Source: a virus
IMG/VR virus record: IMGVR_UViG_3300044716_000732
Location: 1 to 64,000 of that record
Direction: 5' to 3' (one strand)
Length of the DNA: 64,000 bases
Shown here: positions 3,508 through 60,214 of the stretch, piece by piece
Numbering within the stretch: the first letter of the stretch is position 1
Layout of the letters: each line of letters begins with the position of its first letter
Made by a program: the position numbers and the translations under genes
The notes under the pieces: model-generated
The model's database searches: none
Seen by the model: only the letters and a program-made list of their open reading frames with translations
Told to the model about the DNA's origin: nothing

Positions 3508-3623
3508 TTATTAACACTTATATCAAAAATTATTTTTTTACAAAAATAAACATCGAAAAATTTAAATATATTTTTCGTATATGAGGTCTGAGATATATCA
3601 GACTTTATTAAAGTATCTGGTTT

Positions 3624-3824
3624 TTATCGTGGCATTTCTACCAAATCAAAATTAACAGTTGCGAAGTTTGCGCTCTTGTTTTGTAAAGAATGACTTATAA
3701 CATTAAACCCTCTTTTGTTATATGAGTCAATTACTTTTTGAATTTCGGTATTGATGAATCTTTCTCTGTCACCGAAAGTTAAGTTTTGGTTTTTTATTTC
3801 TATTTTTACTATTTCTTTTATCAT
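3624..3824 (-). CDS. hypothetical protein
   Basis: ORF in operon. Confidence 0.6.
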   Translation of the reverse strand: MIKEIVKIEIKNQNLTFGDRERFINTEIQKVIDSYNKRGFNVISHSLQNKSANFATVNFDLVEMPR

Positions 3825-3826
3825 AA

Positions 3827-4576
3827 TTATTTAAAAAATTTGGAAAACGGACACTTTGATTCCGTTTCATTATTTACAATCTTATATTGTTTTGGTGTAT
3901 GGAAATAATCTTTGTATCTATCAAAAGCTTGTGTTGTTGCCTTTCTCCATTTATAAAACAAAGATGGAATGCTTGATGAAACATATGCCATAAAATTTTC
4001 TCTTTTAATTGGAATACATTGTGCTATAGGTGTTCCTTTTTTGATTATACCATTAAAATCTTTTCTTATCATGAATGGGAATGATATAGATACTGGATGT
4101 TTGTCGGTATCTACGATTCCACTGAATGTAGTAAATGGCAAATCGTGATGCATGGGAGAAACAAAAAGAGTAGACCATCCTTTTTTAGTTTTAATAATCC
4201 ATGGATTATTCCATTTTAATATTATAGGATTATATTCATCCGGTATTGGATACATAAAATATTGACTAATGTCATGTCTATATATTACCTCAAAATTCCC
4301 ACAATAAGATTGATTTATATGAGTAATGTCATTATTTTCCTGTGATATGTGTACATCATATGGTAGAGGTATCATATAACCAGATGTTAAAGAATCCCTA
4401 AATGGTACACATCTTTTTATGGTTAAATTTGGATTACCATTAGCTCCTATGTATTTTTCATCACTCGTAAAAGACGGCATATCCTTAAACCATTCTGGAA
4501 TAACCTTACCAGAAGGTTGTGGATAAGGAAAATCGGAAAAAACTTCTTCTGATGAAGCAATAAAATTAATTTTCAT
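3827..4576 (-). CDS. conserved phage protein (beta-rich; common in aquatic phages)
   Basis: motifs PEWFK, TIKRCVPF..SGY, KWNNPW.IKT, GIVDTD, KKGTPIAQ. Confidence 0.7.
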   Translation of the reverse strand: MKINFIASSEEVFSDFPYPQPSGKVIPEWFKDMPSFTSDEKYIGANGNPNLTIKRCVPFRDSLTSGYMIPLPYDVHISQENNDITHINQSYCGNFEVIYRHDISQYFMYPIPDEYNPIILKWNNPWIIKTKKGWSTLFVSPMHHDLPFTTFSGIVDTDKHPVSISFPFMIRKDFNGIIKKGTPIAQCIPIKRENFMAYVSSSIPSLFYKWRKATTQAFDRYKDYFHTPKQYKIVNNETESKCPFSKFFK

Positions 4577-4589
4577 TCAACGGATGATA

Positions 4590-5030
4590 TCAAATATTAG
4601 CTGTTGTGTCAATCTTTTTAAAAGCCAATGTAACAACTCTAGTGTTGTCATAATTTACTTCTGTCATACTAGCAAAGTAATATCCATCATATTTTATTTG
4701 ATTATTATCAAAACTTCCAATAGTTGTGTCTGGATTAATCTCATTATCAGGAGATGTCAATGCTGGTTTTTCTTCTTCTATATATGTATATCCAAAATTT
4801 TCAACATCTATTTTAAAAGATTTTTTCATTTCTTCTTTAGTTTTAAAGAATAATTTCCAGAGTGGAACATTACAAAGTAAATTTAAGGCATATGCTCTAG
4901 TGGAGCAAGAATTACAATATTCCGGTTCTTTTATAAAGAATGTAATAAACTTGGAATGTATTATACATCTAACCAAGTCACCTAAGCCTTCTACATATCT
5001 AAATTTAAAAAGTGGATTTTTAAGTTTCAT
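4590..5030 (-). CDS. hypothetical protein (GLGD...CxxC..R..LN motif)
   Basis: ORF in operon. Confidence 0.65.
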   Translation of the reverse strand: MKLKNPLFKFRYVEGLGDLVRCIIHSKFITFFIKEPEYCNSCSTRAYALNLLCNVPLWKLFFKTKEEMKKSFKIDVENFGYTYIEEEKPALTSPDNEINPDTTIGSFDNNQIKYDGYYFASMTEVNYDNTRVVTLAFKKIDTTANI

Positions 5031-8705: not shown

Positions 8706-11700
8706 ATGTCTTCTGATAAACAAAATCCATACAGCTACAAAATTTGGTTCTCTTTACAGGAGAACAATCTTACAGATGATCCACAAAAATTGTACATGGA
8801 TTATTTAAAAGAATGGTATCTAACTAATAATAAAAAATTAATAGATCCAAAACAAAAAATTAAAGATGAGTATATTCAATTAATTAAAGATTTGAGTTTT
8901 CTTTTTAATAAAGACGAAAAAGATAAATTTTTACAATCTATAGATTATAATAATAAAGAAGAATTGATATATAATATTCCTCTTTTTGCAAAAAAATTAA
9001 AAGAAATAGCAAAAGTTTTAAATGCAAAAAGAACATCTATAAAAAATTCAAAATTAAAATATAGTTTAATAGGATCTAATGATGGAGTTGAAACATTGTT
9101 TTATGAGTATCTATTGAGATCATTTACTACAAGTGAAAATTCAATAACCCAAATACCTACGACATCATTAAAATATGAGTTTCCTTCTTTATCTGCTGTA
9201 AAAGGTGATTTCTTCATAGAGATAGAAGAATTATATGACACCAACAATTATTTGGATTCTGATCCGGAAATAAATGTGTCAGAGTATTTAAATGTTGATG
9301 ATATATTAAATGAATATCCATTCGAAGATTTAACCGAAAATGATATAGTTGGTATTTTAAATTCCAGATTTGTACCAAGAGCAACGGACAATACTTTAAG
9401 TAAGATATATCAGGCATATTTAACTAGTTTAACAGGTGACATCACAACAGATGCAGAAAAAACTAAACTTTTAAATTATCAAATAAATGCATCAGAAAAA
9501 TACATGGGTGAAACTTTATATGGTTTAACCGCAATAAGATTAAAAGATTTAAATCAACCCGATTATGTATTACAAACTGGTTTCTCACAAGGTAACAACT
9601 GGTTTATTTGGCCTAGTGGAAGTAAGGTTATTGATGATACTTTAGGTGACAATTATTTAACTCCGATATTGTTAACTAATTCAAATTTAGTAAGTTCTGG
9701 TGCAACTGGTGGTAGCTCATATAAAGATTCCGATCTTATATTCACCGACAAAAACGGAACAGTAGAAGGTGCATGGTTAAGGGGACCAAGAACATATTCA
9801 CAAAAAGTTTCAACCAGTATTAATATTTTACCCAATAATATTAGAGAATTTATATATCCATATGTAGGTTATAATTTAACAACAAAAGGATTAAATTGGA
9901 TAGGTTACAGTTTAGTAGATCATGACTATAGAAATTATGATCTACTAACAAATGAACAAAAACTTAATTTGATGAAAAGGTATTACACCGAAACTTTACC
10001 TTTAAGTACATCGAATTCTTTTTATTTAAACCAATCAACTCTAGTAGATAATGGTTCAGAAGCGGGTGATAATACATTAAATGCAGATGCTATAATAAAA
10101 AGAAAACATAGAAATGTTATAGATCAGGTAGCAAATTTTTCTGTTGGGGATGACACAGAAGCTGCATTCTTATATAAATTACAAAAAACAGATATTCCAA
10201 TCTCTTTGGGTATAAACAATATATATTGGCCACTTAAAACATTTGAATCATCGGAAAATCTTCCATTGACAATAAAAAGTGATCATAGTATACCTGTACC
10301 ATTAGCTAATTTGAAGGTATCAGAAGTTATGTCCGGTGCTATTGCTGGTTTAACCTTCGAAACATCGGATGTAATTTATAAATTAAGTAATAGGTTTTCT
10401 GATCCAATTGAAGCCGCATGGTTGGGTTCTGGTTCGATTACTAATTTGGAATCAAACAATGACAAATCTATAAAGATATATGATGAAGATGCTGTGTTTT
10501 GTTCAAAATATATAAATGGTCCAACACAAGCATCTTTAAATTTAAAAATTGGTTCCGCAGAAAAAGTTTCTTTTATATGGTGCGATATAGACACACCAGC
10601 AGATGAGGTTTTCAAAAATTTTGAACATGCTCCAAATTGTGAATATGGTAAGCAATCCCATGATTATTATTCGGATCAAAATTATTTAAATCCAGAACAA
10701 TTAAATCAAACAAACCATTGGAAAAAATGTTCTTGTAAGGCTGTAAACTATTCACCAATTGGTCATATTGGAGATTCACCATTAGATTACAATACTAATT
10801 GTGATTTACTTTTTGCTGATCCAGAAGGACTTAAAGATAACTTTACTTTATTAACATGGAAAGATACCAGAGAATTAAATTATAAAAACAGTCCACAATT
10901 TGCTCATTTTAAAATTGATGGTGACGAAGACAATCCAATTGGTTGGGGTAAAGGTACATGGAAAACCGGAAGAGGAAAAAAAGATTCTTTTGGAAAAGAA
11001 GAACAATTTATACTAAAAACCGGAAGAAGATATACATACTTTAGAACATCATTAAGAAAAGATGAAACATCAAGTTTTGAAGAAACACAAACTTCACCAT
11101 ATTATATCGTAAAATATGCTTATAAAGAATTAAGAGGATTTTGTGATTCCAACAATTCTACTAATGGATCAAATACAAATAATTGTTTTGATATGTTTGT
11201 GGTATTGGATGTTAGTAAATCTCAAAAATTATCTATCGAAGATAGTAAAAATTTAGTAATAAACATATCAAAAGTATTACTAGAAAATTCAAACAACAGT
11301 ATTCAAATAGGTGTGGTTGCGTTTAATAAAGAAACTAGTATGTTATCATATCTTACTAATTCTCATGGTGGATTGGAATTTTATGTTAAAAATGTACAAT
11401 TTGAGGAAGATTTTCCAACTCATAGAACAGATATATTAAATGCTATAAAGGTCGCAGAAGATTATTTATATAATGAATTTCCAGAAAATGCTACATCTAA
11501 TTTTGATTATACTGATCTGTGCTCTAAATTAAGTACTTTGATATTAGATGATACCGCAAAATCAAAAACATTAAATTTACCAAGACCATCATGTGCAAAA
11601 AAATTGTTAATAATAAGTGACGGTGAAGAAAATGAAAGTAAAAATCAGGTAATAGATTATGCTAAGACATTAAAAACTCAAAAGAATGTAGAAATATATA

Positions 11701-14696
11701 CGGTTGATATTGGGTTGAGATCTTATAATAACAATTTATTGGAAACCTTAGCATCTGATCCAACCAGATATTATAATTTGGAAGGTTATCTAAAAGAAGG
11801 AAACGGAGATGTATTAACATTTGCAAATATATTGGCATCCAACATTAATGGGTGTGCATCGGTTGTTCCGAGTTGGAAAAAAGCTGTTAAAAATTCATCT
11901 GGAATATGGACAGCATTAAATGAAAAGTCAGATATGGTCATGAGACCGGGTGATTTTTTGGTTTATGTCCATGCAGCAGAAGTTAACTATATAAGCGAAG
12001 ATTCCAATTCCAGTTTTTCACAAGCTGGTTTATCATTTACATTCAATTCAAAATTAAACGGATGGGATTATGATTTAAAAAAATTTGATCCTAAATTTAT
12101 AGGTGAAATATATGGCGGTAAACCATTTTGGGGTGTATCTGACACATTACCCACATTAGAAAAAAGATTTGAAAAGGAAAGCAATCATTTTTCTGGACAA
12201 TTGAGATTTTTTAATGATTATGTTCCTATAAGACAACCAGAAGTATCAAATATTATTATTGAAAATGGTAGTTTTATTCAATATTTTAGAAGAAAAAATA
12301 CATCATTTGATTGGATTCAACCAATAACCTTATCAACTACATTATCTGACTACCAATGGAATAAGATAAATTTCTATAGACACACATCAAATTTAAGTGA
12401 AATATTAAAAAATGGTGACTTTGATTTCTATGGAGAAAGTAGCGATGAAGTAAGTGATATGTTGTTAGAGAGTTATTCTGATTTCAGAATATCACGATAC
12501 AACTATTTTGCCAGAAATGCTTTCACATATACTCAAGAACTATTTAACAAAGATAGATGTGAAAATACATTTGTAGTATTCAATACCGGATCTATTTTAA
12601 CTCCATCTGAACCTTATTGTAATTTATTAAATACACACTTCCCAACAATTGCTACTGTTTCTATTCCAAAATTAATGGTATCCGAAAAATACTTTGGTGG
12701 TTATTTGACTCCTTTGAATCTAGGTGTTCCTTATTATAGAGGAAAGGGATATTCAATTGAAATAGATAAAGATCAAATTACGGTATATGATTCAACCAGT
12801 GCAGAAAGAACCTTTTTCGATCCAAATAAATATGCAAATAGAAATAGAGGATTATCAAAAAATGATCAAATTTCTCCTGCTGTAGTAAAATATGTGGATA
12901 ATAGATGGATGGTGGATTCTTTTAATTCTGGTAGCAGAATGGGAATGCACATAAACACATTAGAAAATCAAAAGTTTACTCCTTATCAATCTTCTTATGA
13001 GATAATAGGAAAAAATAGTCATGGTGTAACAAGGCAGGATGATCCGATAGAATTTTGGAATAACACTTTACCTGCCATATGGAACGATGAAAAGAATTAT
13101 CCTTTAACATTCCGAAAAGAATTGATGGCACAAACCTATGAATTAAGAAAAACTGGGTTATTGGTTGATAGAGGTATTATGACCAACTGGAGAACCGATA
13201 TATTTGGAAATGAATATGGTATATTTAAAACTCCAACAACAACACCAACCAGTACTCCAATAACACCAACCAGTACTCCTACAAGTACACCAACTTCAAC
13301 ACCAACTTCAACACCAACCAGTACTCCTACATCAACTCCAACCAGTACTCCTACATCAACTCCAACCAGTACTCCTACAAGTACACCAACCAGCACTCCA
13401 ACCGATACTCCAACCAGCACTCCTACATCAACACCAACATCCACACCCACAGAAACTCCGAGTGATTGTTTCAATGGAGTAGAATGGGTTCCAATTGTTT
13501 GGGAAGAATGGCAACCTGATCCAAGTACGGTATGTGAAGGTGAATTTGAACAATATAGATATAATAACTGTGGAGAATATGAAACTAGACTTTCATATGG
13601 AACAAAACCTACAGTATGGGGTGACTGGCAACCGGATCCAAGTACTGTATGTTTAGGTTACTATTTTGATAAATATAGAATTAATAATTGTGGAGATTAT
13701 CAATTCGATTGGGGTATCGGTACTGGTCCTATAATATGGGGAGATTGGGAACCAAATCCAAGTACAATATGTGCAGGAACAGCTTTTGATCAATATAGAA
13801 GTAACAACTGTGGTGATTATGAGTCCCAACCTTCTACTGGTACAGGTGTTATAACATGGGGAGATTGGTATCCCGATACTAATCCAAGCAATGTTTGTTA
13901 TGATCAAACATTTACACAAGATAGATATGATAGCGTCTGTGGAAATACAGATCAAAGAACCGTAAATGGTACAGCACAACCAGTTTGGGGAAATTGGACA
14001 CCAGATCCAAGTACAATTGATATCGGTGTAACATTCACACAAACTAGATATGATAGTAGTGTATGTGGAAAGGTTGAAACTCAACAAGCAGTTGGAACAA
14101 GAATGCCATGTATCGCAAGTAATACAACAAATATGGGCGATGTGGTAGTACCAATAACATATCAAGACTATTTAAATTATTGTGCTAGAATAGATTCCGG
14201 TGGATTTAATTTATACTTGGGAGCAACCGGAGATGAATATTCTTCCGATGGTAATACGGGATGGCTAAGATGGTCGATTAGTATTTCTGGTTCAATCGCA
14301 GCTGGAGGAATTAGTAGCAATAGATGTAGTATATACATAAGTGGAACTGTCAATGGAACCTTATCAAAAACCGGAAATCCACCACCAACACCAAATCCTA
14401 CTATTGAGCCAGCATCATCGTATGGAAATGTTACTATAAATTTCCGTTATGTTGGAACTCAAATGTATATGGGAATAAGTGTAAATTATGGAAATGATAT
14501 AACATCGAATCCTAATTATTTACCAGGTGGGCCGTATTATCAAAATCGTACGGAATTCGGAGGCGGTACGGCTACCGTGTTAGGTTACAACATACCGGTA
14601 ATTAGTTTGTGGTGTCCTGGCTTTTCAAGGGAATGTAGCCAATATGCGCCTCCGGTATATCAAAATACAAGAACAAATTCCTTAATAGTAAGTTGA
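8706..14696 (+). CDS. large virion structural protein with VWA domain, PTST linker and Cys/Trp repeats
   Basis: 1996-aa ORF; VWA MIDAS-like VVLDVSKS...LLIISDG; (PTST)n; repeats WGDWxPDPSTxC. Confidence 0.85.
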   Translation: MSSDKQNPYSYKIWFSLQENNLTDDPQKLYMDYLKEWYLTNNKKLIDPKQKIKDEYIQLIKDLSFLFNKDEKDKFLQSIDYNNKEELIYNIPLFAKKLKEIAKVLNAKRTSIKNSKLKYSLIGSNDGVETLFYEYLLRSFTTSENSITQIPTTSLKYEFPSLSAVKGDFFIEIEELYDTNNYLDSDPEINVSEYLNVDDILNEYPFEDLTENDIVGILNSRFVPRATDNTLSKIYQAYLTSLTGDITTDAEKTKLLNYQINASEKYMGETLYGLTAIRLKDLNQPDYVLQTGFSQGNNWFIWPSGSKVIDDTLGDNYLTPILLTNSNLVSSGATGGSSYKDSDLIFTDKNGTVEGAWLRGPRTYSQKVSTSINILPNNIREFIYPYVGYNLTTKGLNWIGYSLVDHDYRNYDLLTNEQKLNLMKRYYTETLPLSTSNSFYLNQSTLVDNGSEAGDNTLNADAIIKRKHRNVIDQVANFSVGDDTEAAFLYKLQKTDIPISLGINNIYWPLKTFESSENLPLTIKSDHSIPVPLANLKVSEVMSGAIAGLTFETSDVIYKLSNRFSDPIEAAWLGSGSITNLESNNDKSIKIYDEDAVFCSKYINGPTQASLNLKIGSAEKVSFIWCDIDTPADEVFKNFEHAPNCEYGKQSHDYYSDQNYLNPEQLNQTNHWKKCSCKAVNYSPIGHIGDSPLDYNTNCDLLFADPEGLKDNFTLLTWKDTRELNYKNSPQFAHFKIDGDEDNPIGWGKGTWKTGRGKKDSFGKEEQFILKTGRRYTYFRTSLRKDETSSFEETQTSPYYIVKYAYKELRGFCDSNNSTNGSNTNNCFDMFVVLDVSKSQKLSIEDSKNLVINISKVLLENSNNSIQIGVVAFNKETSMLSYLTNSHGGLEFYVKNVQFEEDFPTHRTDILNAIKVAEDYLYNEFPENATSNFDYTDLCSKLSTLILDDTAKSKTLNLPRPSCAKKLLIISDGEENESKNQVIDYAKTLKTQKNVEIYTVDIGLRSYNNNLLETLASDPTRYYNLEGYLKEGNGDVLTFANILASNINGCASVVPSWKKAVKNSSGIWTALNEKSDMVMRPGDFLVYVHAAEVNYISEDSNSSFSQAGLSFTFNSKLNGWDYDLKKFDPKFIGEIYGGKPFWGVSDTLPTLEKRFEKESNHFSGQLRFFNDYVPIRQPEVSNIIIENGSFIQYFRRKNTSFDWIQPITLSTTLSDYQWNKINFYRHTSNLSEILKNGDFDFYGESSDEVSDMLLESYSDFRISRYNYFARNAFTYTQELFNKDRCENTFVVFNTGSILTPSEPYCNLLNTHFPTIATVSIPKLMVSEKYFGGYLTPLNLGVPYYRGKGYSIEIDKDQITVYDSTSAERTFFDPNKYANRNRGLSKNDQISPAVVKYVDNRWMVDSFNSGSRMGMHINTLENQKFTPYQSSYEIIGKNSHGVTRQDDPIEFWNNTLPAIWNDEKNYPLTFRKELMAQTYELRKTGLLVDRGIMTNWRTDIFGNEYGIFKTPTTTPTSTPITPTSTPTSTPTSTPTSTPTSTPTSTPTSTPTSTPTSTPTSTPTSTPTDTPTSTPTSTPTSTPTETPSDCFNGVEWVPIVWEEWQPDPSTVCEGEFEQYRYNNCGEYETRLSYGTKPTVWGDWQPDPSTVCLGYYFDKYRINNCGDYQFDWGIGTGPIIWGDWEPNPSTICAGTAFDQYRSNNCGDYESQPSTGTGVITWGDWYPDTNPSNVCYDQTFTQDRYDSVCGNTDQRTVNGTAQPVWGNWTPDPSTIDIGVTFTQTRYDSSVCGKVETQQAVGTRMPCIASNTTNMGDVVVPITYQDYLNYCARIDSGGFNLYLGATGDEYSSDGNTGWLRWSISISGSIAAGGISSNRCSIYISGTVNGTLSKTGNPPPTPNPTIEPASSYGNVTINFRYVGTQMYMGISVNYGNDITSNPNYLPGGPYYQNRTEFGGGTATVLGYNIPVISLWCPGFSRECSQYAPPVYQNTRTNSLIVS

Positions 14697-20958: not shown

Positions 20959-21007
20959 AAATAGATATTTGAAATTTTAGATTGCGGGTTAGATAAATAG
21001 TTTATAT

Positions 21008-21089
21008 TGCAGAGTGTGAGAAGTGGTATCTCAGTGCGCTCATAACGCACCGCCCTTGCGCCTCGAAGGTTCGATTCCTTCCTCTGCTA
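21008..21089 (+). tRNA. tRNA-Met(CAT), atypical: 1:72 mismatch, 14-nt variable region, no CCA
   Basis: GCAGAG/CTCTGC acceptor, GTGCG-CTCATAA-CGCAC, GAAGG-TTCGATT-CCTTC. Confidence 0.8.
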
Positions 21090-21594
21090 TTTTGTTTTTG
21101 ATGATGGGTGATATTTTATTTTCAAATGCTTCATCTATAAGTTGCTTCTGTTTTTTTCTGCTGCTTATTTCTGAAACATTTATAACGAAAAAAGAATATT
21201 CCATATCAGATAATTCTTTAAATTTTAAACTATCTTTAAGTTTAACATCTTCAAGTTTTTTTTCTCCGAAAATAGGAAAATAATGAATAGGCCCATTGAC
21301 TTCTATGGCTAAAGATATTTCTGGAATGCAAATATCTATTTCAAGACCAGAAGATAATGTTTGCCTATCTGATTGAATGATCTTTAAAAAAGAGAATTCA
21401 TTCTCTATTTTAGAATAAAGATAATCTTCTGGAAAACTTATATTTCTTTTACAACCTTTATTGATATGGAAATTTTTATTAAAATATCTCATACGACAAG
21501 ATTTACTACAAAATCTTTTATTGTGTTTGGTTTTATTGTGTTTTCTATCTTTTAGAGGTTTAAAAAGTATATTACATTCTGGACAATTTATCAT
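21040..21594 (-). CDS. PD-(D/E)XK (Vsr/DUF559-like) putative homing endonuclease with N-terminal zinc finger
   Basis: CPEC...FCSKSC; LEIDICIPEISLAIEVNGPIHY; antisense within the tRNA cluster. Confidence 0.75.
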   Translation of the reverse strand: MINCPECNILFKPLKDRKHNKTKHNKRFCSKSCRMRYFNKNFHINKGCKRNISFPEDYLYSKIENEFSFLKIIQSDRQTLSSGLEIDICIPEISLAIEVNGPIHYFPIFGEKKLEDVKLKDSLKFKELSDMEYSFFVINVSEISSRKKQKQLIDEAFENKISPIIKNKIAEEGIEPSRRKGGAL

Positions 21595-21643
21595 ATGCTT
21601 ATGAATACTTACACTTACCATAAGCATTGTTTGAAATTTTTAT

Positions 21644-21726
21644 TCCTCGTTAGTAGAATTGGTAAATACACGGGACTGTTAATCCCGCGCAGCAATGCAC
21701 TCTTGGTTCAAGTCCAAGACGAGGAG
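21644..21726 (+). tRNA. tRNA-Asn(GTT) with long variable arm
   Basis: TCCTCGT/ACGAGGA; CGGGA-CTGTTAA-TCCCG; V-arm GCA-GCAA-TGC; G73. Confidence 0.9.
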
Positions 21727-21746
21727 CATCTTACAAAAGATAAAAA

Positions 21747-21776
21747 GGTTCTCGATGAGCCAGATAAAAAAATCGA
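21747..21776 (+). ncRNA. H-type pseudoknot element, copy 2
   Basis: GGTTC TCGAT GAGCC ... ATCGA (compensatory change relative to copy 1). Confidence 0.6.
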
Positions 21777-21785
21777 AAATATCTC

Positions 21786-21814
21786 TTGACCTTTTTAGAA
21801 ACAGGTGATAAGAT
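21786..21814 (+). promoter_or_regulatory. sigma70-type promoter for the second tRNA block
   Basis: TTGACC-17bp-TAAGAT with extended TG. Confidence 0.65.
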
Positions 21815-21892
21815 GGTGGAAGATTAGTAAAGGTTATCTGAACCTTGTAAAAACAATCAGAAAAGATTTTTGATAGAATTTGTATATTGTCT

Positions 21893-21978
21893 GACGATAT
21901 GGTGTAATGGCAGCCACAAGGGTCTTAAAAACCCTTGCTCGTAAGAGCGTGAGAGTTCGAGTCTCTCTATCGTCACCA
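21893..21978 (+). tRNA. tRNA-Leu(TAA)
   Basis: GACGATA/TATCGTC-A-CCA; AGGGT-CTTAAAA-ACCCT; long V arm. Confidence 0.95.
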
Positions 21979-21988
21979 GTTTTAAAAA

Positions 21989-22082
21989 GGGAGGTTAGTG
22001 TAATTGGAAGCACCGACAGACTTATAATCTGTGTTCCATAGATGTTGGACGAGCATGGGTTCGATTCCCATACCTCCTTCCA
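21989..22082 (+). tRNA. tRNA with TAT anticodon (nominal Ile), long variable arm, U73
   Basis: GGGAGGT/ACCTCCT-T-CCA; ACAGA-CTTATAA-TCTGT; ATGGG-TTCGATT-CCCAT. Confidence 0.85.
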
Positions 22083-22105
22083 CTTTGTAAATAGTTAATT
22101 TAGAC

Positions 22106-22178
<73 letters not shown>

Positions 22179-22184
22179 GATTTT

Positions 22185-22260
22185 GTATCGGTGGCGCAAT
22201 GGATAGCGCAAGCGGTTTCTACCCGTTAGGTTGGGGGTTCAAGTCCCTCCCGATACGCCA
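22185..22260 (+). tRNA. tRNA-Arg(TCT)
   Basis: GTATCGG/CCGATAC-G-CCA; AGCGG-TTTCTAC-CCGTT. Confidence 0.95.
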
Positions 22261-50298: not shown

Positions 50299-51309
50299 AT
50301 GAAACTCGCATCAATTGAAATCATAAAAAATATAAAAATTCACCCTAATGCGGATTCTTTAGAAATCGCAGAAGTTTTGGGCTGGCAGACAGTGGTAAAA
50401 AAAGGAATCCACAAAGAGGGAGATAAGGTTGTTTTTATTACGATTGATACTATTGTTCCTCGTCGGGAATGGTCTGAATTTTTGGTAGATCAAAAAAATC
50501 CAGATAAGCCTATTAGATTAAAAAACATAAAGCTTCGTGGAGAATATAGTTCTGGTTTGGTTATTCCTTTGATTGAATTTCCTTTACAATTCGAATCTCT
50601 AGATGTTGGTGATGATGTAACAGAAATACTTGGTATTCAAAAGTATGTAAAGGAAATCCCTGCTAATCTTTCTGGTGAAACATTAGGAGATTTTCCCACA
50701 AATATCATCTCAAAAACAGATGAAGACAATGGTTTGAATGATCCCAAGTTGGTTGATGAAGTGTTTAAAGTTGATAAAGAACTTACGATAAGTCTAAAAA
50801 TAGATGGATCTTCTTGTACTTTAATAGTAGAAGATGGAAAATTGATACAAGTTTGTAGTAGAAATCTTTCTAAAAAAGAAACTGAAAATTCTACATTTTG
50901 GAATGCAGCAAAAAAATTAAATATACCAGAAAATTGGACGGGCGTCATACAATCGGAAATGGCGGGTAATGGAATACAATGTAACAATTTAAAAATCAAC
51001 GAGATAAAATTATTTGTATTTCAAATTTATACTGATAATAAATATATGACATATGATGAAATGAAGCAATTTTGTGATAATCATTTAAAATGCGATGTTG
51101 TTCCATTGATTTGTAAACTTAAAATAGAAGATACAATAAATCTTTGGACGGATCCTTTAAAGAAATTACAAGAATTGGCAGATAAACAAAAATATTCAAG
51201 CGGACTTGATGCGGAGGGAATTGTTGTAAGACCCTCTAGTTATATCAAATCTAGAAATTCTAGAAGACCATTAGGATTCAAATTGATAAACAGAAATTAT
51301 AAAGATTAA
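50299..51309 (+). CDS. RNA ligase, DRB0094/Rnl5 family
   Basis: MKLASI...HPNAD.LE, LRGEYSSGL, KTDE, KIDGSS, EGIVVR, FKLIN. Confidence 0.88.
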   Translation: MKLASIEIIKNIKIHPNADSLEIAEVLGWQTVVKKGIHKEGDKVVFITIDTIVPRREWSEFLVDQKNPDKPIRLKNIKLRGEYSSGLVIPLIEFPLQFESLDVGDDVTEILGIQKYVKEIPANLSGETLGDFPTNIISKTDEDNGLNDPKLVDEVFKVDKELTISLKIDGSSCTLIVEDGKLIQVCSRNLSKKETENSTFWNAAKKLNIPENWTGVIQSEMAGNGIQCNNLKINEIKLFVFQIYTDNKYMTYDEMKQFCDNHLKCDVVPLICKLKIEDTINLWTDPLKKLQELADKQKYSSGLDAEGIVVRPSSYIKSRNSRRPLGFKLINRNYKD

Positions 51310-52226
51310 TCCTTTATACATTTTTCAACTACACATCTAGAAATATTTAATTTTTTAGATATTTTATTTATTGTAATATTATTATTATATTCTTTTAAAC
51401 AAAAGTCACATAACTCTTTATATGTTTTGAATTGAAAATTAGGTATTCTTTTTAAAATTTTAGACATAGTTTGATTTTTATTTTCTCCCACATTAAATCT
51501 TTTTAATATATTACGAATAACAACACCACTTAAATTAATTTTAGATCCAATGCTCCAAATACCCAATCCCTTTTTACTTTCTTCTAAACAAAAATTTTCA
51601 AGTTCTTCATAACTATTAAAAATAAAATTTTTATGATGTTTTTTAATTTGTCTCCAAGAATTTTCTTTACATGTTTTTTTAGCATGTTCCCTTAATGCTT
51701 TTAATCTTTCAACACTTAATTTTCTTCCAATTGATTTTTCTCTTATTTTATTTTTTGTAATATCAGTATGTTTTTTTCCATACATTCCATTTTTAATACC
51801 TTTTCTTGCAAAAAAATTTGAATAATTCTTCTTGAAAAATAAAATTTCTCTACTATTCATTATTCTATATTTTTGATTATCTTCTCTTTTTTTAAACATA
51901 GCATAAAATGCTTGCATAATAGAGTTATTATTCGTTATCATTCTCAATGCTAAAATTTTATGACAAATTAAATGTTCTTTCAGAGTTAAAAAAACAATGT
52001 TATTTATATCATTTTTTGAATATTCATCTGAAATACATTTTGGTAAAATATGATGAGCTTCATAGTTATATTTTCCATATTTTTTATTGACATATTTTTT
52101 TGCTGAATATATCTTTTCATAAGAAAAAACTATTCTATTACTTGCTCTTTTTATTATTTTTTCATATATACGATAATACTTTTGTGAATTCGATAAATTT
52201 TTTATTTTTTCTAAATAAATGTTCAT
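51306..52226 (-). CDS. HNH/NUMOD3 homing endonuclease
   Basis: EAHHILPK...NIVFLTLKEH.ICH; NGMYGKKHT. Confidence 0.8.
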   Translation of the reverse strand: MNIYLEKIKNLSNSQKYYRIYEKIIKRASNRIVFSYEKIYSAKKYVNKKYGKYNYEAHHILPKCISDEYSKNDINNIVFLTLKEHLICHKILALRMITNNNSIMQAFYAMFKKREDNQKYRIMNSREILFFKKNYSNFFARKGIKNGMYGKKHTDITKNKIREKSIGRKLSVERLKALREHAKKTCKENSWRQIKKHHKNFIFNSYEELENFCLEESKKGLGIWSIGSKINLSGVVIRNILKRFNVGENKNQTMSKILKRIPNFQFKTYKELCDFCLKEYNNNITINKISKKLNISRCVVEKCIKD

Positions 52227-52318
52227 AAAACTACTTATCAAATTTAGATGTTTTTGGAATAGGTATTCAACATAATTATTGACATTTTTAAAATTTAATG
52301 TATTGTATAAAGACTAAT

Positions 52319-53168: not shown

Positions 53169-53543
53169 ATGAAAAACAAAGATCAAATATTACTGGAACA
53201 AGCATATTCAAAAATTTTAAATGAAAATTTAGATAAATTTCAACCACATGATCCGGAAATGCAAGAATTATCTAAAGTAGGTCTTGGTGAAGAATATCCA
53301 GAAGATGAGAACGTTTCCTCTGATGATAGAAATTGGTATTTCGATGAAGATGGACAACCACCATATAATGTAAAATATTCTAATAGAACGTTTAATATTA
53401 GAGGTAAAGAAGTATTGATCAAACAAGAAATGGATCAAGACGATGATAGTAGGTGGTATTATATTTCTCTTGTTGATCCAGAAACAAAAGAACGTGTTTT
53501 TAATGATGTTACAGAAGATCAAATCAAAAAAATGTTTTTTTGA
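53169..53543 (+). CDS. hypothetical protein with KDQILLE tag
   Basis: MKNKDQILLEQAYSKILNE. Confidence 0.7.
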   Translation: MKNKDQILLEQAYSKILNENLDKFQPHDPEMQELSKVGLGEEYPEDENVSSDDRNWYFDEDGQPPYNVKYSNRTFNIRGKEVLIKQEMDQDDDSRWYYISLVDPETKERVFNDVTEDQIKKMFF

Positions 53544-53546
53544 TTG

Positions 53547-53575
53547 TTGACATTTTTGAAAAAATAATATATAGT
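53547..53575 (+). promoter_or_regulatory. sigma70-type promoter of the ncRNA/tmRNA operon
   Basis: TTGACA-17bp-TATAGT. Confidence 0.75.
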
Positions 53576-53588
53576 CTTTATTAGATAG

Positions 53589-53642
53589 TTGGTTCCCGAT
53601 GAGCCAATGGGACTGAGAATACTCGGTCGAATACAAAATCGG
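53589..53642 (+). ncRNA. H-type pseudoknot element, copy 3 (hairpin inserted in loop 3)
   Basis: TTGGTTC CCGAT GAGCCAA, GACTGAG-AATA-CTCGGTC, ATCGG. Confidence 0.65.
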
Positions 53643-53673
53643 AAATTGATATTTGACATTTTAATTTTAGTAG

Positions 53674-53753
53674 ACCCGCCATGCCTCTCACTTGACATGA
53701 GTAGTTTCTAAAGTACACGGCAACTAAGTAAGTTGATGCACACTTTGGCGGGT
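53674..53753 (+). ncRNA. structured ncRNA A (unknown)
   Basis: ACCCGCCA/TGGCGGGT closing stem; internal hairpins CTCA/TGAG and CAACT/AGTTG. Confidence 0.6.
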
Positions 53754-53760
53754 GTTTCTT

Positions 53761-53916
53761 TTACCAAGCGCAGATGCTCGCAAAGCTCTACCGCGATGGG
53801 TGACAATGCAATGTTTCCGGAAACAACATTTAACCCATAGGGAACTTCTTCGATTATTATGTATGCGTCCATAAGATACTTGGAGGACTAATGATTAGAA
53901 TGAGAGGTCTTGGTAA
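53761..53916 (+). ncRNA. structured ncRNA B (unknown)
   Basis: TTACCAAG/CTTGGTAA closing stem; internal ATGGGT/ACCCAT and GTCC/GGAC stems. Confidence 0.5.
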
Positions 53917-53927
53917 TGATTTTAAAA

Positions 53928-54113
53928 ACTGGAATGTTGGTTTAGAAAACCATCATCTAAGGAGTGGGAGATTGGACGTGGAGAACTGGTAATTAGTATG
54001 GACACAATTCAAATAAGCCATACATCCTATTTATAGGTACGGAGATGACCGTGAATTGCGTTTCACAGGACGAAGAAATTCGTAACCCCTTTAGCTTTAA
54101 AAGGCACACCAGT
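53928..54113 (+). ncRNA. ncRNA C: mimic of the 23S rRNA GTPase-associated centre (H42-H44) with an insertion
   Basis: ACTGGAATGTTGGTTTAGAAAACCATCATCTAAGGAGT...GCACACCAGT aligns to E. coli 23S 1051-1108 with compensatory changes. Confidence 0.75.
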
Positions 54114-54125
54114 AAAATTTTGATA

Positions 54126-54266
54126 AGTCGGACGGGAATAGTGTGCTGTGCTGTTCTTAAAAAGCTCACCGTTGCAGACTGTCACCAGACTCGATTAGGC
54201 AGAGGGTAACAAGTAATCTTCGTCCAACGTGAGAAAAACACGGTAGCCAATGAAGAACTTTCTGGT
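54126..54266 (+). ncRNA. structured ncRNAs D/E (unknown)
   Basis: AGTC/GACT and ACGG/CCGT stems (54126-54180); ACCAGA/TCTGGT stem (54184-54266). Confidence 0.4.
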
Positions 54267-54285
54267 AATGATCTTTGAAATTTAT

Positions 54286-54696
54286 GGGGGTGAAAGGATT
54301 CGACATTGGATTCTAACTTCTCAGTGCATGTAGAGGATGATAGTTGGCCTCTTTAATAATCTATCAAAAACTAAATGCAGAAGACAATACTTCTGATCTT
54401 TTAGACGAAGCTGAATACATCTTCAACAATGCTGACGAGTTCCTCGCTGGCGTTGAAGACTACGCACTCGCCGCCTAAGAGCCTAACGGTAATCCTCTAA
54501 ATCCGTTTTGAATTGCAGAGGTTTTGACGATCTGTTAGAAATCATGTAAAAAATATTACGGAGTTTGTTGTAACTTTAAAACATCAAGGTTGGTTAATGT
54601 GCCAAGATACCTTATAAATCAAATACATTAAAGCATGTGTAGATCTGAAAGTAAACGTTTAATGGACACGACTATCGTATGTCGTCACCTCCACCA
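54286..54696 (+). ncRNA. ssrA: tmRNA
   Basis: GGGGGTGAAAGGATTCGAC 5' end; CACCTCC-A-CCA 3' end with G3:U; tag ORF 54377-54478 ending YALAA*. Confidence 0.95.
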
Positions 54697-54701
54697 TTTT
54701 T

Positions 54702-54789
54702 GGGTAGATAGACTCGTAAGGGGCGAGAATTGGCTGTAGACCAATTGTTATTTTTAACCCTGTCCGTTCGAATCGGACTCTGCCCACCA
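54702..54789 (+). tRNA. tRNA-Tyr(GTA)
   Basis: GGGTAGA/TCTGCCC-A-CCA; ATTGG-CTGTAGA-CCAAT; long V region. Confidence 0.9.
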
Positions 54790-54796
54790 TTTATAA

Positions 54797-54871
54797 GTCT
54801 CTATAGTGTAACGGTTAGCACAGTACCCTTTCACGGTATTAGTATCGGTTCAAATCCGTTTAGAGATGCCA
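54797..54871 (+). tRNA. tRNA-Glu(TTC)
   Basis: GTCTCTA/TAGAGAT-G-CCA; GTACC-CTTTCAC-GGTAT. Confidence 0.9.
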
Positions 54872-54890
54872 AATTTTGCGGAGTCGAACC

Positions 54891-54931
54891 AAACCCCTTT
54901 GGGCTACCAACCTAGAGGGGTTTATTTATTT
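54891..54931 (+). terminator. terminator of the ncRNA operon
   Basis: AAACCCCTTTGG...CTAGAGGGGTTT plus T-rich tail. Confidence 0.7.
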
Positions 54932-54953
54932 AAAATAAAGATAAATATTTTAT

Positions 54954-55553
54954 ATGAAAAAGTTATTTTTATTTTGTTCTATTTTATTATTTTTAAACAG
55001 CTGTACTGTTTATACAGAAAAACAATCTGAAGCATTATCTCGTTCCGTTTATGCTACCAAAGATTCTTTAGACAACGCAAGATTAGACTTAGCCGATACC
55101 TATGCTAATGAATCAACAAGAATAGTAAAACCACCTAAACAAAGAATAGATATTAAACCTGTTTATAAAAAGAATATTGATAATATTTCAAGTCAAAGCA
55201 AAGTAAAACCAACAATTATAAACAAACAAAGAGTTTTAATAATACCCGAAAAATATAAAAACGATACGGTTGTTGTTGTAAGCTCCGAAGAATATCAACA
55301 ACTCTTAAAAGATAAAGAAACATACGAACAAATAGAAAAAGATATTGCAAATATAACAGAAACAAAAATAGCAGTAGATCAGGAATTGATTCGTCAAATG
55401 GAATATAATGATAAAATGGTTAGAGATTTGAATATAATGCAGAAAAAATTGATAGAAAAAGATCTTGCGATTTTACAAAGAAATATTGCAATAATATTTT
55501 TACTTGTTATAATGGGTGGAGCAACTTATCTAAGAATAAAAGGAATACTCTAA
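54954..55553 (+). CDS. lipoprotein with C-terminal TM helix (candidate unimolecular spanin)
   Basis: MKK-hydrophobic-LNSC lipobox-like; C-terminal IAIIFLLVIMGGATYL. Confidence 0.6.
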   Translation: MKKLFLFCSILLFLNSCTVYTEKQSEALSRSVYATKDSLDNARLDLADTYANESTRIVKPPKQRIDIKPVYKKNIDNISSQSKVKPTIINKQRVLIIPEKYKNDTVVVVSSEEYQQLLKDKETYEQIEKDIANITETKIAVDQELIRQMEYNDKMVRDLNIMQKKLIEKDLAILQRNIAIIFLLVIMGGATYLRIKGIL

Positions 55554-59035: not shown

Positions 59036-59128
59036 TACAAAAACAATTTTAGCTGGAATAACATTCTTTTTAGTATCTTTCTTTTATTTTTGGTTGATGT
59101 TTCTTCAAAAATAGTATATCATCATATA

Positions 59129-60214
59129 ATGAAAGTTAATCTTCCTATAGAAGAGGGTTATTTTAATATTACTCCAGATGAATTCTGTGGATTATATTGT
59201 TGGTTAATAACTCCGGAGAGAGATGCGAAATGGAATAAAAACAACCTTTTTTATAGATCTTTAATTGTTGATAGAGAAGGAAACGTGTTGTCTTCTGGTT
59301 GGCCTAAGTTTTTTAATTACGAAGAGAAACCAGATTGTTATCCGGATCCTAAAAACTTTAATGATTTGAAATATGAGGAAAAAAAGGATGGTTCTCTTTT
59401 AATTGCTGATTATGTAAATGGTCAATTCTCTATGAGAACCAGAGGAACTGTTTCTTATAGAACTCAAGAAAATGCAAAAGATTTTGAATTACTTCCGGAA
59501 CGATACCCTAAAGTTGTTGAGTTCTTAAAAGAAAATCAACACCTCACTTTATTGTTTGAAATAGTAACTCCGAGTAATGTTATTGTAATAAGACCACAAC
59601 AGTTAGAGTTTTATCTTATTGGAGCAATAAACAAAAATGGAATGGTAGTAGTTTCCTCTGCTGATTTAACCGACATCTGGAGAAAAATCGGGCCGATTCC
59701 AATGCCACAGTCTTACAATTTTCTAGATACTAATGATATTTCTAAAATCGCAGAAACCATTAAACATTGGAAGGGGAAAGAAGGAATTGTTGTTTCTTAC
59801 AATAATGGACAGAGTAGAATAAAATTAAAGTCGGATTGGTATCTTTTTATTCATAAAGTTAAATCCAAACTAAATTCTACTAAGAATCTTATTGAATTTT
59901 ATATAGAAAAAGAAATGCCATCATATGAAGATTTTTATAAAATAATTGAAACGGATTTTGATTATGAGATTGCAATTCAATTAAAACGAGAAATAGAAAA
60001 AATTTGTGAAGCAGGAGAAAAATCAAAAAAATATATTGACTATATCCTAGAAGTGGTGCATGATATAAGAAAGGTAGAAACGAGAAAAGAACAAGCCGAA
60101 ATGATAAAAAGAAATTTCCAAGAAAATTCTTCATTCGTATTTTGCGTTTTAGATGGTAGAATAATAACAAAAGAACAATGGACGAAACTTATAAATCAAA
60201 ATTATGAAAGTTAA
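59129..60214 (+). CDS. RNA ligase, T4 Rnl1-like
   Basis: KFFN, EKKDGSL, LLFE, EGIVV, KLKSDWY. Confidence 0.85.
   Translation: MKVNLPIEEGYFNITPDEFCGLYCWLITPERDAKWNKNNLFYRSLIVDREGNVLSSGWPKFFNYEEKPDCYPDPKNFNDLKYEEKKDGSLLIADYVNGQFSMRTRGTVSYRTQENAKDFELLPERYPKVVEFLKENQHLTLLFEIVTPSNVIVIRPQQLEFYLIGAINKNGMVVVSSADLTDIWRKIGPIPMPQSYNFLDTNDISKIAETIKHWKGKEGIVVSYNNGQSRIKLKSDWYLFIHKVKSKLNSTKNLIEFYIEKEMPSYEDFYKIIETDFDYEIAIQLKREIEKICEAGEKSKKYIDYILEVVHDIRKVETRKEQAEMIKRNFQENSSFVFCVLDGRIITKEQWTKLINQNYES

Follow-up and report, generated by a model that had tools for sequence, protein, structure and literature searches.

The window analyzed here comprises 64,000 nt of a viral genome (positions 1 to 64,000 of the IMG/VR record IMGVR_UViG_3300044716_000732). 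It contains a 1.4-kb stretch without long open reading frames (ORFs) that runs from a promoter-like site to a terminator-like hairpin and in which the order of features, all on the plus strand, is the promoter-like site, an abiF-like RNA, the element that is the subject of this work, a transfer-messenger RNA (tmRNA), tRNA-Tyr, tRNA-Glu, and the terminator-like site. The element occupies 186 bases (53928-54113) and, as judged from its sequence, is demonstrably a copy of helices 42-44 (H42-H44) of 23S rRNA, the uL11-binding GTPase-associated center (GAC, E. coli 1051-1108), with a 128-nt insert. Its letters run exactly as the original prediction for this DNA had given them: ACTGG, A, ATGTTGGTT, TAGAA, AACCATCAT, CTAAG, GAGT, the insert (53966-54093), GCTTTAAAAGGC, ACA, and CCAGT. 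The E. coli-type 23S reference that the same prediction had quoted matches, letter for letter, the genuine 23S gene in viral contig L033.

All parts of the GAC architecture are present and in order. The 5′ strand of the closing helix, ACUGG (53928-53932, the equivalent of the top of H42), is predicted to pair with 54109-54113. It is followed by the H43 mimic (53934-53956), in which a stem of 53934-53942 with 53948-53956 carries a 5-nt UAGAA loop (53943-53947) where the family described below has a loop of 7 nt. CUAAG (1082-1086, closed by a C-G pair) and GAGU (1087-1090) occupy 53957-53965, after which comes the insert domain (53966-54089) with a basal GGG(A)/CCCC pairing that is predicted by RNAalifold from 17 sequences of the same lineage. 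The insert is joined to H44 by a U-run, the linker UUUA (54090-54093; UUUG in the family), and the H44 hairpin itself (54094-54105) has the derived form GCUU-UAAA-AGGC, replacing the GC-GUAAUA-GC of the family. ACA (1101-1103), which with the next base reads ACAC, and the CCAGU strand that completes the closing helix fill 54106-54113. Most of the pairings had been proposed beforehand, and they are borne out. The ACUGG/CCAGU helix is found both in the window sequence and in the model alignment; the H43 stem is changed in a compensated manner (GGUU/AACC versus GGCU/AGCC); the 1082:1086 pair is C-G, at a position where U-A, C-G, and A-U all occur across the family; 1090:1101 is U-A; and the H43 loop is shorter by 2 nt, seen as two deleted model positions in the alignment to the covariance model R1.

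The element stands by itself. A degenerate pattern for its 5′ core has a single match in the 64-kb window and none in any of 100 dinucleotide-preserving shuffles. The original prediction had claimed that the flanks hold no other rRNA sequence, and a blastn comparison with the part of an rRNA operon in L033 indeed returned only a 14-nt word of the core. Continuity with 23S rRNA, through H41 and lower H42 at one end or through H45 at the other, was not found, the flanks being phage non-coding sequence held in common with L065, the closest canonical relative. The Rfam rRNA families gave no match at gathering scores in the whole window and none at E ≤ 10 in 53300-54400, and nothing in Rfam 15, against which a check had been suggested, matches 53928-54113 at gathering score or at E ≤ 10. 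The element is likewise unmatched by Rfam 15 in eight canonical loci at gathering scores and in L065 at E ≤ 1. A second copy of the mimic was sought in the 87-kb record from which the window is taken and in five related records, all of them fragments, and each yielded one match. A blastn search of GenBank phages with a 751-nt non-coding stretch gave no match, which is uninformative, the core being short.

The element at 53928-54113 is almost certainly a member of a large phage-borne family of structured RNAs, a conclusion that we draw from sequence comparison. In the IMG/VR viral contigs, the 5′ core pattern picked out at least 39 stretches, namely one true 23S (L033), 11 that are nearly identical to the window, and 27 canonical ones with inserts. 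In the canonical stretches the core and GAGU are followed by a variable insert, by UUUGGCGUA-R-N-AGCACAC, and then by a strand complementary to the bases that precede the core. A scan of the viral contigs for this 3′ motif gave at least 120 stretches, and a search for the core upstream of them led to at least 126 two-part elements, at least 109 of them distinct; six matches to the 3′ motif lacked the 5′ core, four of these being cut by the end of the locus. From the 38 elements whose insert does not exceed 118 nt and whose closing helix has 5 bp or more, we took 32 into an alignment, A1, omitting L047 and L083, which have an extra H43 hairpin, and the near-duplicates L008, L071, L126, and L128. 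The GAC secondary structure and a basal helix for the insert were then written onto the alignment. In A1, 96.0% of cells are paired compared with 72.3% in shuffles, and the covariation score was reached by 0 of 500 shuffles. Both sides have changed in 17 of the 25 pairs, and sliding the partners by one to three columns reduces pairing to 32-54%. The covarying pairs include seven of the eight in the closing helix, 1057:1081, 1058:1080, 1064:1074, 1082:1086 (U-A in 18, C-G in 12, and A-U in one of the 32 sequences), as well as every one of the four basal pairs in the insert. For the 3′ motif, the search pattern itself set the columns, which are hence uninformative.

The covariance model R1, built from A1, contains no sequence of the window's own lineage. 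It nevertheless finds the window element over its full length (model positions 1-167) at 58.8 bits (E 1.3e-16), and this is the sole significant match in the window and in the 87-kb record, the next best in the window scoring 5.5 bits (E 2.8). The canonical sister L065, whose element lies at 4492-4676 on the minus strand, scores 96.1 bits and the genuine 23S GAC of L033 51.7 bits (E 5.7e-14). A covariance model from homologs in other phages was the check that the original prediction had proposed for itself; the family's pairings are kept and covary, and the model recovers the element. Base counts over the 94 of 109 cores with a gap-free alignment show that G1059, U1060, G1063, C1072, C1075, C1079, A1084, A1085, G1087, A1088, and G1089 are invariant, with G1071 being G in 93.

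Genuine 23S genes (L207-L209, L211) also have GAGU at 1087-1090 and continue directly with GCGUAAUAGC. Because the two are contiguous there, the point of insertion in the family is exactly between 1090 and 1091. Insert length spans 26-366 nt, the inserts of different lineages being unlike, and since the shortest are 26-nt hairpins (L049, L071, L131), the GAC part is the constant core. Past the start of the H43 3′ strand the 5′ core diverges in L047, L083, L073, L105, L106, L109, L130, L136, and L137; in L083 an extra hairpin is visible at this point, which suggests a second insertion site tolerated by the family. We also looked for another ribosomal motif in the inserts: the 14-nt consensus of the sarcin-ricin loop, with up to two mismatches, was matched in one of 109 (a hairpin in L149, two mismatches). 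A sarcin-ricin-loop copy within 53501-54300 was rejected, as the best match (at 53897) has four mismatches, which we estimate to be about the chance level.

Members of the family occur widely. Complete phage genomes that carry one span 81-519 kb, and the core sits in unannotated gaps of GenBank phages including Cronobacter phage GAP32, Serratia phage BF, several Erwinia and Xanthomonas jumbo phages, Aeromonas phage 4_4572, and Paenibacillus phage Pd_22F. R1 scores 83 bits in GAP32 (JN882285.1, about 289514-289760), between two hypothetical genes, and 44.6 bits in phage 4_4572 (about 75083-75221), upstream of tRNA-Met. Among genome assemblies, taken as one genome per species (185,579 species), a narrow core pattern found 24 stretches, of which 15 are members and nine are genuine or broken 23S; the members lie in assemblies labeled Flintibacter muris, Acidithiobacillus (a complete chromosome, tRNA-flanked), Clostridiaceae, Nitrospira, and others. 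The Flintibacter muris mimic differs from the 23S GAC of the same genome and so was not captured from it recently. In a second genome (G007) the mimic (L203) also differs from the 23S copies (L207, L209, L211), the origin of these short contigs being doubtful; two genomes are too few for generalizing about how far mimics track their hosts. The original prediction held that the element is a stand-alone RNA selected for the H42-H44 fold and not captured rDNA, and the family, the covariation that extends to the insert helix, the Flintibacter muris copy, and the invariant 5′ core of the lineage (below) all agree with this.

Three of the contigs from these assemblies deserve separate mention. A contig from a metagenome-assembled genome (MAG) of Candidatus Limenecus (L155, 3996-5387) has three R1 matches within 1.4 kb, at 94.8, 42.1, and 21.4 bits, which may be tandem or degenerate copies. 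In the complete chromosome of Acidithiobacillus sp. M4-SHS-6 (L161, about 3550-3980), two tRNA genes enclose the member, whose insert is about 330 nt long and whose H44 loop reads GUAAAU; a prophage or a tRNA island may be its setting. In a 1460-nt contig of a Caryophanon MAG (L164), 23S sequence diverges right after GAGU (1090), the insertion point of the family, and the contig is probably broken or chimeric.

The lineage to which the window belongs is a derived variant of the family, not a typical member. The original prediction had noted the shorter H43 loop, but had missed that the two absent bases are near-invariant in the family and that the H44 hairpin is atypical. Typical members combine a 7-base H43 loop that includes G1071 and C1072 with a G-U-A-R-N-A-type loop in H44; the window has neither. 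L065, which shares with it the same flanks and the same insert (83% identity over 53736-54285), provides the closest canonical comparison. The H43 loop is UAGAA in the window versus UAGAGGC in L065, the deleted bases being G1071 and C1072 in our own column numbering, and the H44 hairpin is GCUU-UAAA-AGGC versus GC-GUAGAA-GC; a third difference is two extra bases (GA) at the start of the insert. Every short-loop copy for which the 3′ half is present has the derived H44, that is, the window, 11 of 11 viral loci, and 7 of 7 metagenome loci (an eighth is cut before its 3′ half and stands outside this count), and the five copies of the lineage with a canonical loop and a 3′ half (L065, L177, L184, L187, L194) all have the canonical H44. 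At 54103, opposite U54096, G and A alternate among 13 derived sequences (U-G in seven, U-A in six), as fits a 4-bp H44 stem with a UAAA loop. In this lineage the 2-bp stem and 6-nt loop of H44 have been rebuilt into what is predicted to be a 4-bp stem with a UAAA loop. In the part of the literature on the E. coli GAC available to us, the contacts between H43 and H44 include the cis Watson-Crick/Hoogsteen pairs C1072/C1092 and G1071/G1091, hydrogen bonds to G1099 and C1100, and A1070-A1096 (PMC2952862). Given these contacts, the changed places in H43 and H44 are the two sides of one tertiary contact.

The rebuilt element has remained under constraint. Among 12 derived-group sequences from different samples, none of the 41 columns of the 5′ core (53928-53968) is substituted, compared with substituted columns numbering 13 of 123 for the insert, 3 of 22 for the 3′ core, 27 of 78 for the abiF-like part, 45 of 174 for 53754-53927, and 32 of 171 for 54114-54285. 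RNAalifold, applied to the 17 lineage sequences, supports four hairpins of the insert (53996-54023, 54026-54037, 54038-54053, and 54070-54083) and a long enclosing stem (53977-53994 with 54054-54069) that is invariant, so that it is predicted only. Pairs changed on both sides number three in the hairpin at 54070-54083, two at 54026-54037, and one at 53996-54023; the three compensated pairs of the first convert ACGAA-GAAA-UUCGU into AUAGA-GUAAAA-UCUAU in L032 and L037. A long-range pairing of 53761-53766 with 54264-54269, picked out by eye, was discarded after it proved to be broken in several relatives.

The neighbors of the mimic form a compact unit. The promoter-like sequence TTGACA-17-TATAGT (53547-53575) agrees with the consensus at 11 of 12 positions and is kept in 6 of 12 lineage sequences; it is a consensus match only, the number of such sites in the region being no higher than in shuffles. 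A possible second promoter at about 53654 (TTGACA) has no -10 hexamer at 16-18 nt in the window and was treated as a relic; the relatives L020 and L030 keep TTGACA-17-TAGAGT at this second box. The promoter-proximal 130 nt (53540-53675) are mosaic, with at least three unrelated versions in 12 otherwise near-identical relatives. The abiF-like RNA hairpin (53675-53753) has a 47-nt loop insert and matches RF03085 at 29.8 bits (E 0.0047), short of the gathering score (37); its stem halves are kept in 12 of 12 lineage sequences, and L065 has an uninterrupted 37-nt abiF motif (4814-4850, minus strand) that scores 49.6 bits against RF03085, above the gathering score. An Abi_2 gene was not found in the 87-kb record, which is 43% complete. 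In C. difficile, the part of the report available to us states, the AbiF toxin is neutralized by an abiF-motif RNA through direct binding (PMC12373285). By analogy with that finding, an orphan abiF motif carried by a lytic phage could serve as a decoy against AbiF.

Downstream of the mimic, a conserved non-coding stretch (54114-54285) is kept in the lineage and in L065, has no Rfam match at E ≤ 10, and, like 53754-53927 on the other side, travels with the element in L065. The tmRNA (54286-54696; RF00023, 100.1 bits) starts 172 nt downstream of the mimic. ARAGORN misses it, though it calls the tmRNA in relatives, and its tag reading frame is unusually long. tRNA-Tyr (54702-54789) and tRNA-Glu (54797-54871), both called by ARAGORN and the second also found by Rfam, follow, and the unit ends with a terminator-like hairpin of 13 pairs (6 G-C) and a T-run (54891-54923). 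In L065 the abiF motif and the mimic persist with the stretches on either side, but the tmRNA and the two tRNAs are missing; the mimic unit is independent of them. The segment equivalent to 54286-54945 is absent there and the downstream protein gene comes directly after the mimic unit, the behavior of an insertion/deletion cassette.

The phage is T4-like (rIIA, an Rnl1-type RNA ligase, a second RNA ligase, and a virion protein) and comes from lake water. Around the stable-RNA unit (50299-52241, 59090-60214) lie a homing-endonuclease gene and the genes for the two RNA ligases, one of phrog_968 type and one of Rnl1/phrog_562 type, an arrangement reminiscent of the tRNA-repair genes of T4. Elsewhere in the window are a second tRNA cluster of six genes (21007-22260; Met, Asn, Leu(taa), Ile(tat), Met, Arg(tct)) and a 1996-aa ORF (8706-14696) whose sole PHROG match, a weak one, is with a family of unknown function. 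Across the family, a tRNA or tmRNA gene lies within 100 nt of 49 of 110 elements, on the same strand in all 49, which suggests that the mimic is made together with tRNAs; at 36 of the 110 loci there is no tRNA within the fetched stretch. A shared protein neighbor was not found, the largest cluster occurring in 6 of 110 loci within 4 kb, and a uL11 C-terminal domain was encoded neither in the 87-kb record of the window nor in any of 50 other family-bearing phage records, 23 of which are at least 90% complete. These two results together point to action in trans on a host component. The placement expected of a ribosomal-protein leader is not seen either, as the tmRNA and tRNAs lie downstream and no uL11 C-terminal domain gene does.

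Sequences from the unit are also present in RNA libraries. Parts of 53540-54930 occur in 24 public runs, six of which are RNA libraries, and contigs from the metatranscriptomes of four studies (X20, X21, X23, X11) cover the element: X20 record 5 corresponds to 53662-54256, X21 records 13-15 to 53759-54113, X23 record 19 to 53803-54069, and X11 record 2 to 53979-54459, crossing into the tmRNA. Adapter sequence in X11 at 53882 and 53979 was not taken to mark RNA ends, and the lack of RNA-library contig cover over 53200-53554 and 55046-55300 carries no weight either way. Contigs that skip 80-91 nt at 53672-53764 and 53722-53803 represent relatives with a different abiF-loop region. The co-transcription with tmRNA and tRNAs that had been asserted is therefore retained as plausible rather than as established, on the strength of the promoter-like and terminator-like sites and of the X11 contig across the tmRNA boundary.

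What the mimic might do can be approached from the way the GAC is read on the ribosome. Crystal structures of L11-RNA complexes show that the C-terminal domain of uL11 binds the H43 stem and the junction. The GAC apex adjoins the N-terminal domain of uL11, thiostrepton, and the translation factors, and the lower H42/kink-turn region carries the uL10/L12 site. The frozen H43 stem and junction are the surface bound by the uL11 C-terminal domain, while the apex is what the lineage has rebuilt, and for this reason uL11 is the simplest candidate reader. Capture of the whole free stalk is unlikely, because the element has only the top 5 bp of H42 and so lacks the uL10 site. Our preferred interpretation, held tentatively and by analogy with rRNA, is that the mimic works in trans, off the ribosome, and presents the GAC surface to a host reader, with uL11 as the best guess. 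In such a scheme the mimic RNA would be cut from a poly-RNA transcript together with the tRNAs and, once released, would act away from the ribosome, showing the H43/junction surface to the host component that normally reads it, most likely uL11 through its C-terminal RNA-binding domain. It might soak up free or exchangeable uL11, or hold uL11 on the inserted domain, and the outcome would be altered host ribosomes or altered uL11-dependent signaling (RelA) during infection. In relC genetics, relC-like ribosomes cannot activate RelA; one speculative gain for the phage is that titration of uL11 would produce such ribosomes.

Several observations weigh against this interpretation. uL11 is named as the reader by analogy with rRNA alone. 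A1067 is A in only 80 of the 94 family cores, a variation that is presumably laxer than in rRNA. In the window's own lineage, the element scores 37 bits below its canonical sister L065 with R1, and, having lost the GUAAUA loop along with two near-invariant bases, it may fold differently from the GAC at the tertiary level; binding of uL11 could then be lost if the compact GAC fold is required. The two loop changes, being coupled, amount to one evolutionary event and count once. As a single sequence the element folds with ordinary stability (z = -0.70; 47 of 200 shuffles at least as stable), and RNAalifold prefers to pair 1083-1090 with the stretch CCCCUUUA over forming the GAC junction, in columns that are invariant and so favor neither pairing. 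The RNA-library contigs, being assembled, reveal neither the ends nor the strand nor the level of the RNA, and such libraries can also contain DNA. Finally, with 43% of the genome in hand, a canonical second copy or a phage uL11 gene may lie elsewhere.

The best-surviving alternative, which we consider unlikely, is that the GAC-like part is a decoy for another reader of the site, such as a translational GTPase, RelA, an rRNA-modifying enzyme, or a host defense protein that inspects it. Canonical members lend themselves to such a role, having largely kept the factor-facing bases (A1067 as above, and the G1093-A1098 loop in members found via the 5′ core alone), and decoy RNAs would fit a locus with an abiF-like RNA in the same unit, given the binding of the AbiF toxin by the C. 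difficile abiF-motif RNA in the available part of that report (PMC12373285). The window's lineage, however, has rebuilt the apex that factors and thiostrepton touch while the H43 stem and junction stay constrained. With G1071, C1072, and the GUAAUA H44 loop (including A1095) lost, this apex is no faithful copy, which makes a decoy for apex-inspecting factors less likely here than in canonical members. In the searchable literature we found no defense protein that targets the GAC, and we know of none.

A second alternative places the function in the variable insert or in the whole 600-nt unit and leaves the GAC fold as a sturdy three-way-junction scaffold. Inserts of 26-366 nt that differ between lineages would be expected of such a design, as would the good retention of the lineage insert (13 of 123 columns substituted) with its compensated hairpins and the company of 53754-53927 and 54114-54285 in L065. 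Yet the minimal members L049, L071, and L131 have only a 26-nt hairpin for an insert, so the GAC part alone suffices for retention; no insert comes close to the core in conservation; and U1060, A1084, A1085, and A1088, invariant in 94 of 94 cores, exceed what a generic junction needs, to the point that R1 finds real 23S. We regard a pure scaffold as quite unlikely.

It is improbable that the mimic is a cis-acting module for processing, stability, or folding of the tmRNA/tRNA transcript with no target in trans. Its closeness to tRNA or tmRNA genes, always on the same strand where the distance is at most 100 nt (49 of 110 members) and 172 nt upstream of the tmRNA in the window, is what this would lead one to expect, but the 36 of 110 loci with no tRNA in the fetched stretch and the retention of the whole mimic unit in L065 without the downstream tmRNA and two tRNAs are at odds with it, and RNA processing leaves the exact copy of a protein-binding rRNA domain unexplained. 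A functionless, captured or decaying fragment of host rDNA, for which the strong local 23S similarity and a loss of two near-invariant bases that could be read as decay might be cited, is hardly credible and already contradicted by flanks in which Rfam and blastn find no rRNA sequence, by a fixed-site insert with a covarying basal helix, by at least 109 distinct members with compensatory changes, by a 5′ core unsubstituted in 41 columns of 12 sequences from different samples, and by a Flintibacter muris mimic unlike its own genome's 23S GAC.

Returning to the proposal of a uL11-type reader acted on in trans, we read the window's variant as functional and not as decaying: it would keep the stem/junction ligand and drop the copy of the factor- and thiostrepton-facing apex. 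A bolder extension, which we regard as doubtful, treats the lineage as a natural dissection of the GAC. The loop lost two bases and H44 gained two in one coupled step that would remove the G1071/C1072 triples; the function for which the family is selected would then need only a surface of the uL11 C-terminal-domain type and not the cleft that binds factors and thiostrepton, and the unit would be a phage operon of stable RNAs, each replacing or imitating a host RNA of translation or defense.

We found a free-standing GAC mimic described neither in Rfam 15 nor in the searchable literature, from which subscription journals are excluded. As far as its accessible part goes, a survey of 10,006 candidate viral structured RNAs (PMC10690425) reports no rRNA overlap, and its supplement could list the motif unnamed; the same holds for a preprint (bioRxiv 10.64898/2026.10.21.760802) whose accessible part has no mention of 23S, L11, or GTPase. 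What the window adds is the coupled H43/H44 remodeling under continued constraint, the abiF-like neighbor, the sister without tmRNA, and the RNA-library contigs. If these RNAs do provide a free copy of the uL11 site, phages would have a new route for tuning host translation or the stringent response, and this would be, to our knowledge, the first known virus-encoded, trans-acting imitation of a ribosomal functional center. Cultured carriers such as Cronobacter phage GAP32 make the question directly testable, and the window variant, which separates the GAC stem and junction from the apex, forms with L065 a matched pair for comparing binding and folding.

Among known systems, the leaders of ribosomal-protein genes (rplJ/L10) are cis-regulatory, lie upstream of ribosomal-protein genes, and imitate rRNA loosely. 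The mimic resembles them in being an off-ribosome RNA that imitates a protein-binding site of rRNA, and differs in being near-exact and phage-borne, in having no ribosomal-protein gene downstream, and in giving no match to an Rfam leader. GOLLD and ROOL are large, ornate phage-associated RNAs found near tRNA genes, with functions that are unknown. A phage or prophage location and proximity to tRNAs are common to them and to the mimic, whereas the core of the mimic is an rRNA copy, and neither the window nor the nine family loci scanned gave an Rfam match to them. In the available parts of their reports, pseudo-ToxI of phage PhiTE (PMC3475682) and the abiF antitoxin-like RNA (PMC12373285) are phage non-coding RNAs that imitate a host RNA to occupy a host protein, as we propose for the mimic, which has an abiF-like motif 175 nt upstream of it in its own unit. 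They imitate antitoxin RNAs of abortive infection, however, while the mimic imitates a ribosomal domain and has no known toxin partner. The closest likeness is to the 23S GAC itself, with which the mimic shares the same helices in the same order, the family-invariant junction bases U1060, A1084, A1085, G1087, and A1088, the same natural covariations (1057-1059 with 1079-1081, and 1082 with 1086), and GAGU at 1087-1090, which also occurs in genuine 23S (L207-L209, L211). It departs from the 23S GAC in being free-standing and outside rRNA operons, in having a 26-366-nt domain between 1090 and 1091, in the A at 1101 (U-A with 1090), and in an H42 part that is a plain helix of variable sequence; the window's lineage departs further, having given up G1071 and C1072 and carrying its H44 loop, UAAA, on a longer stem.

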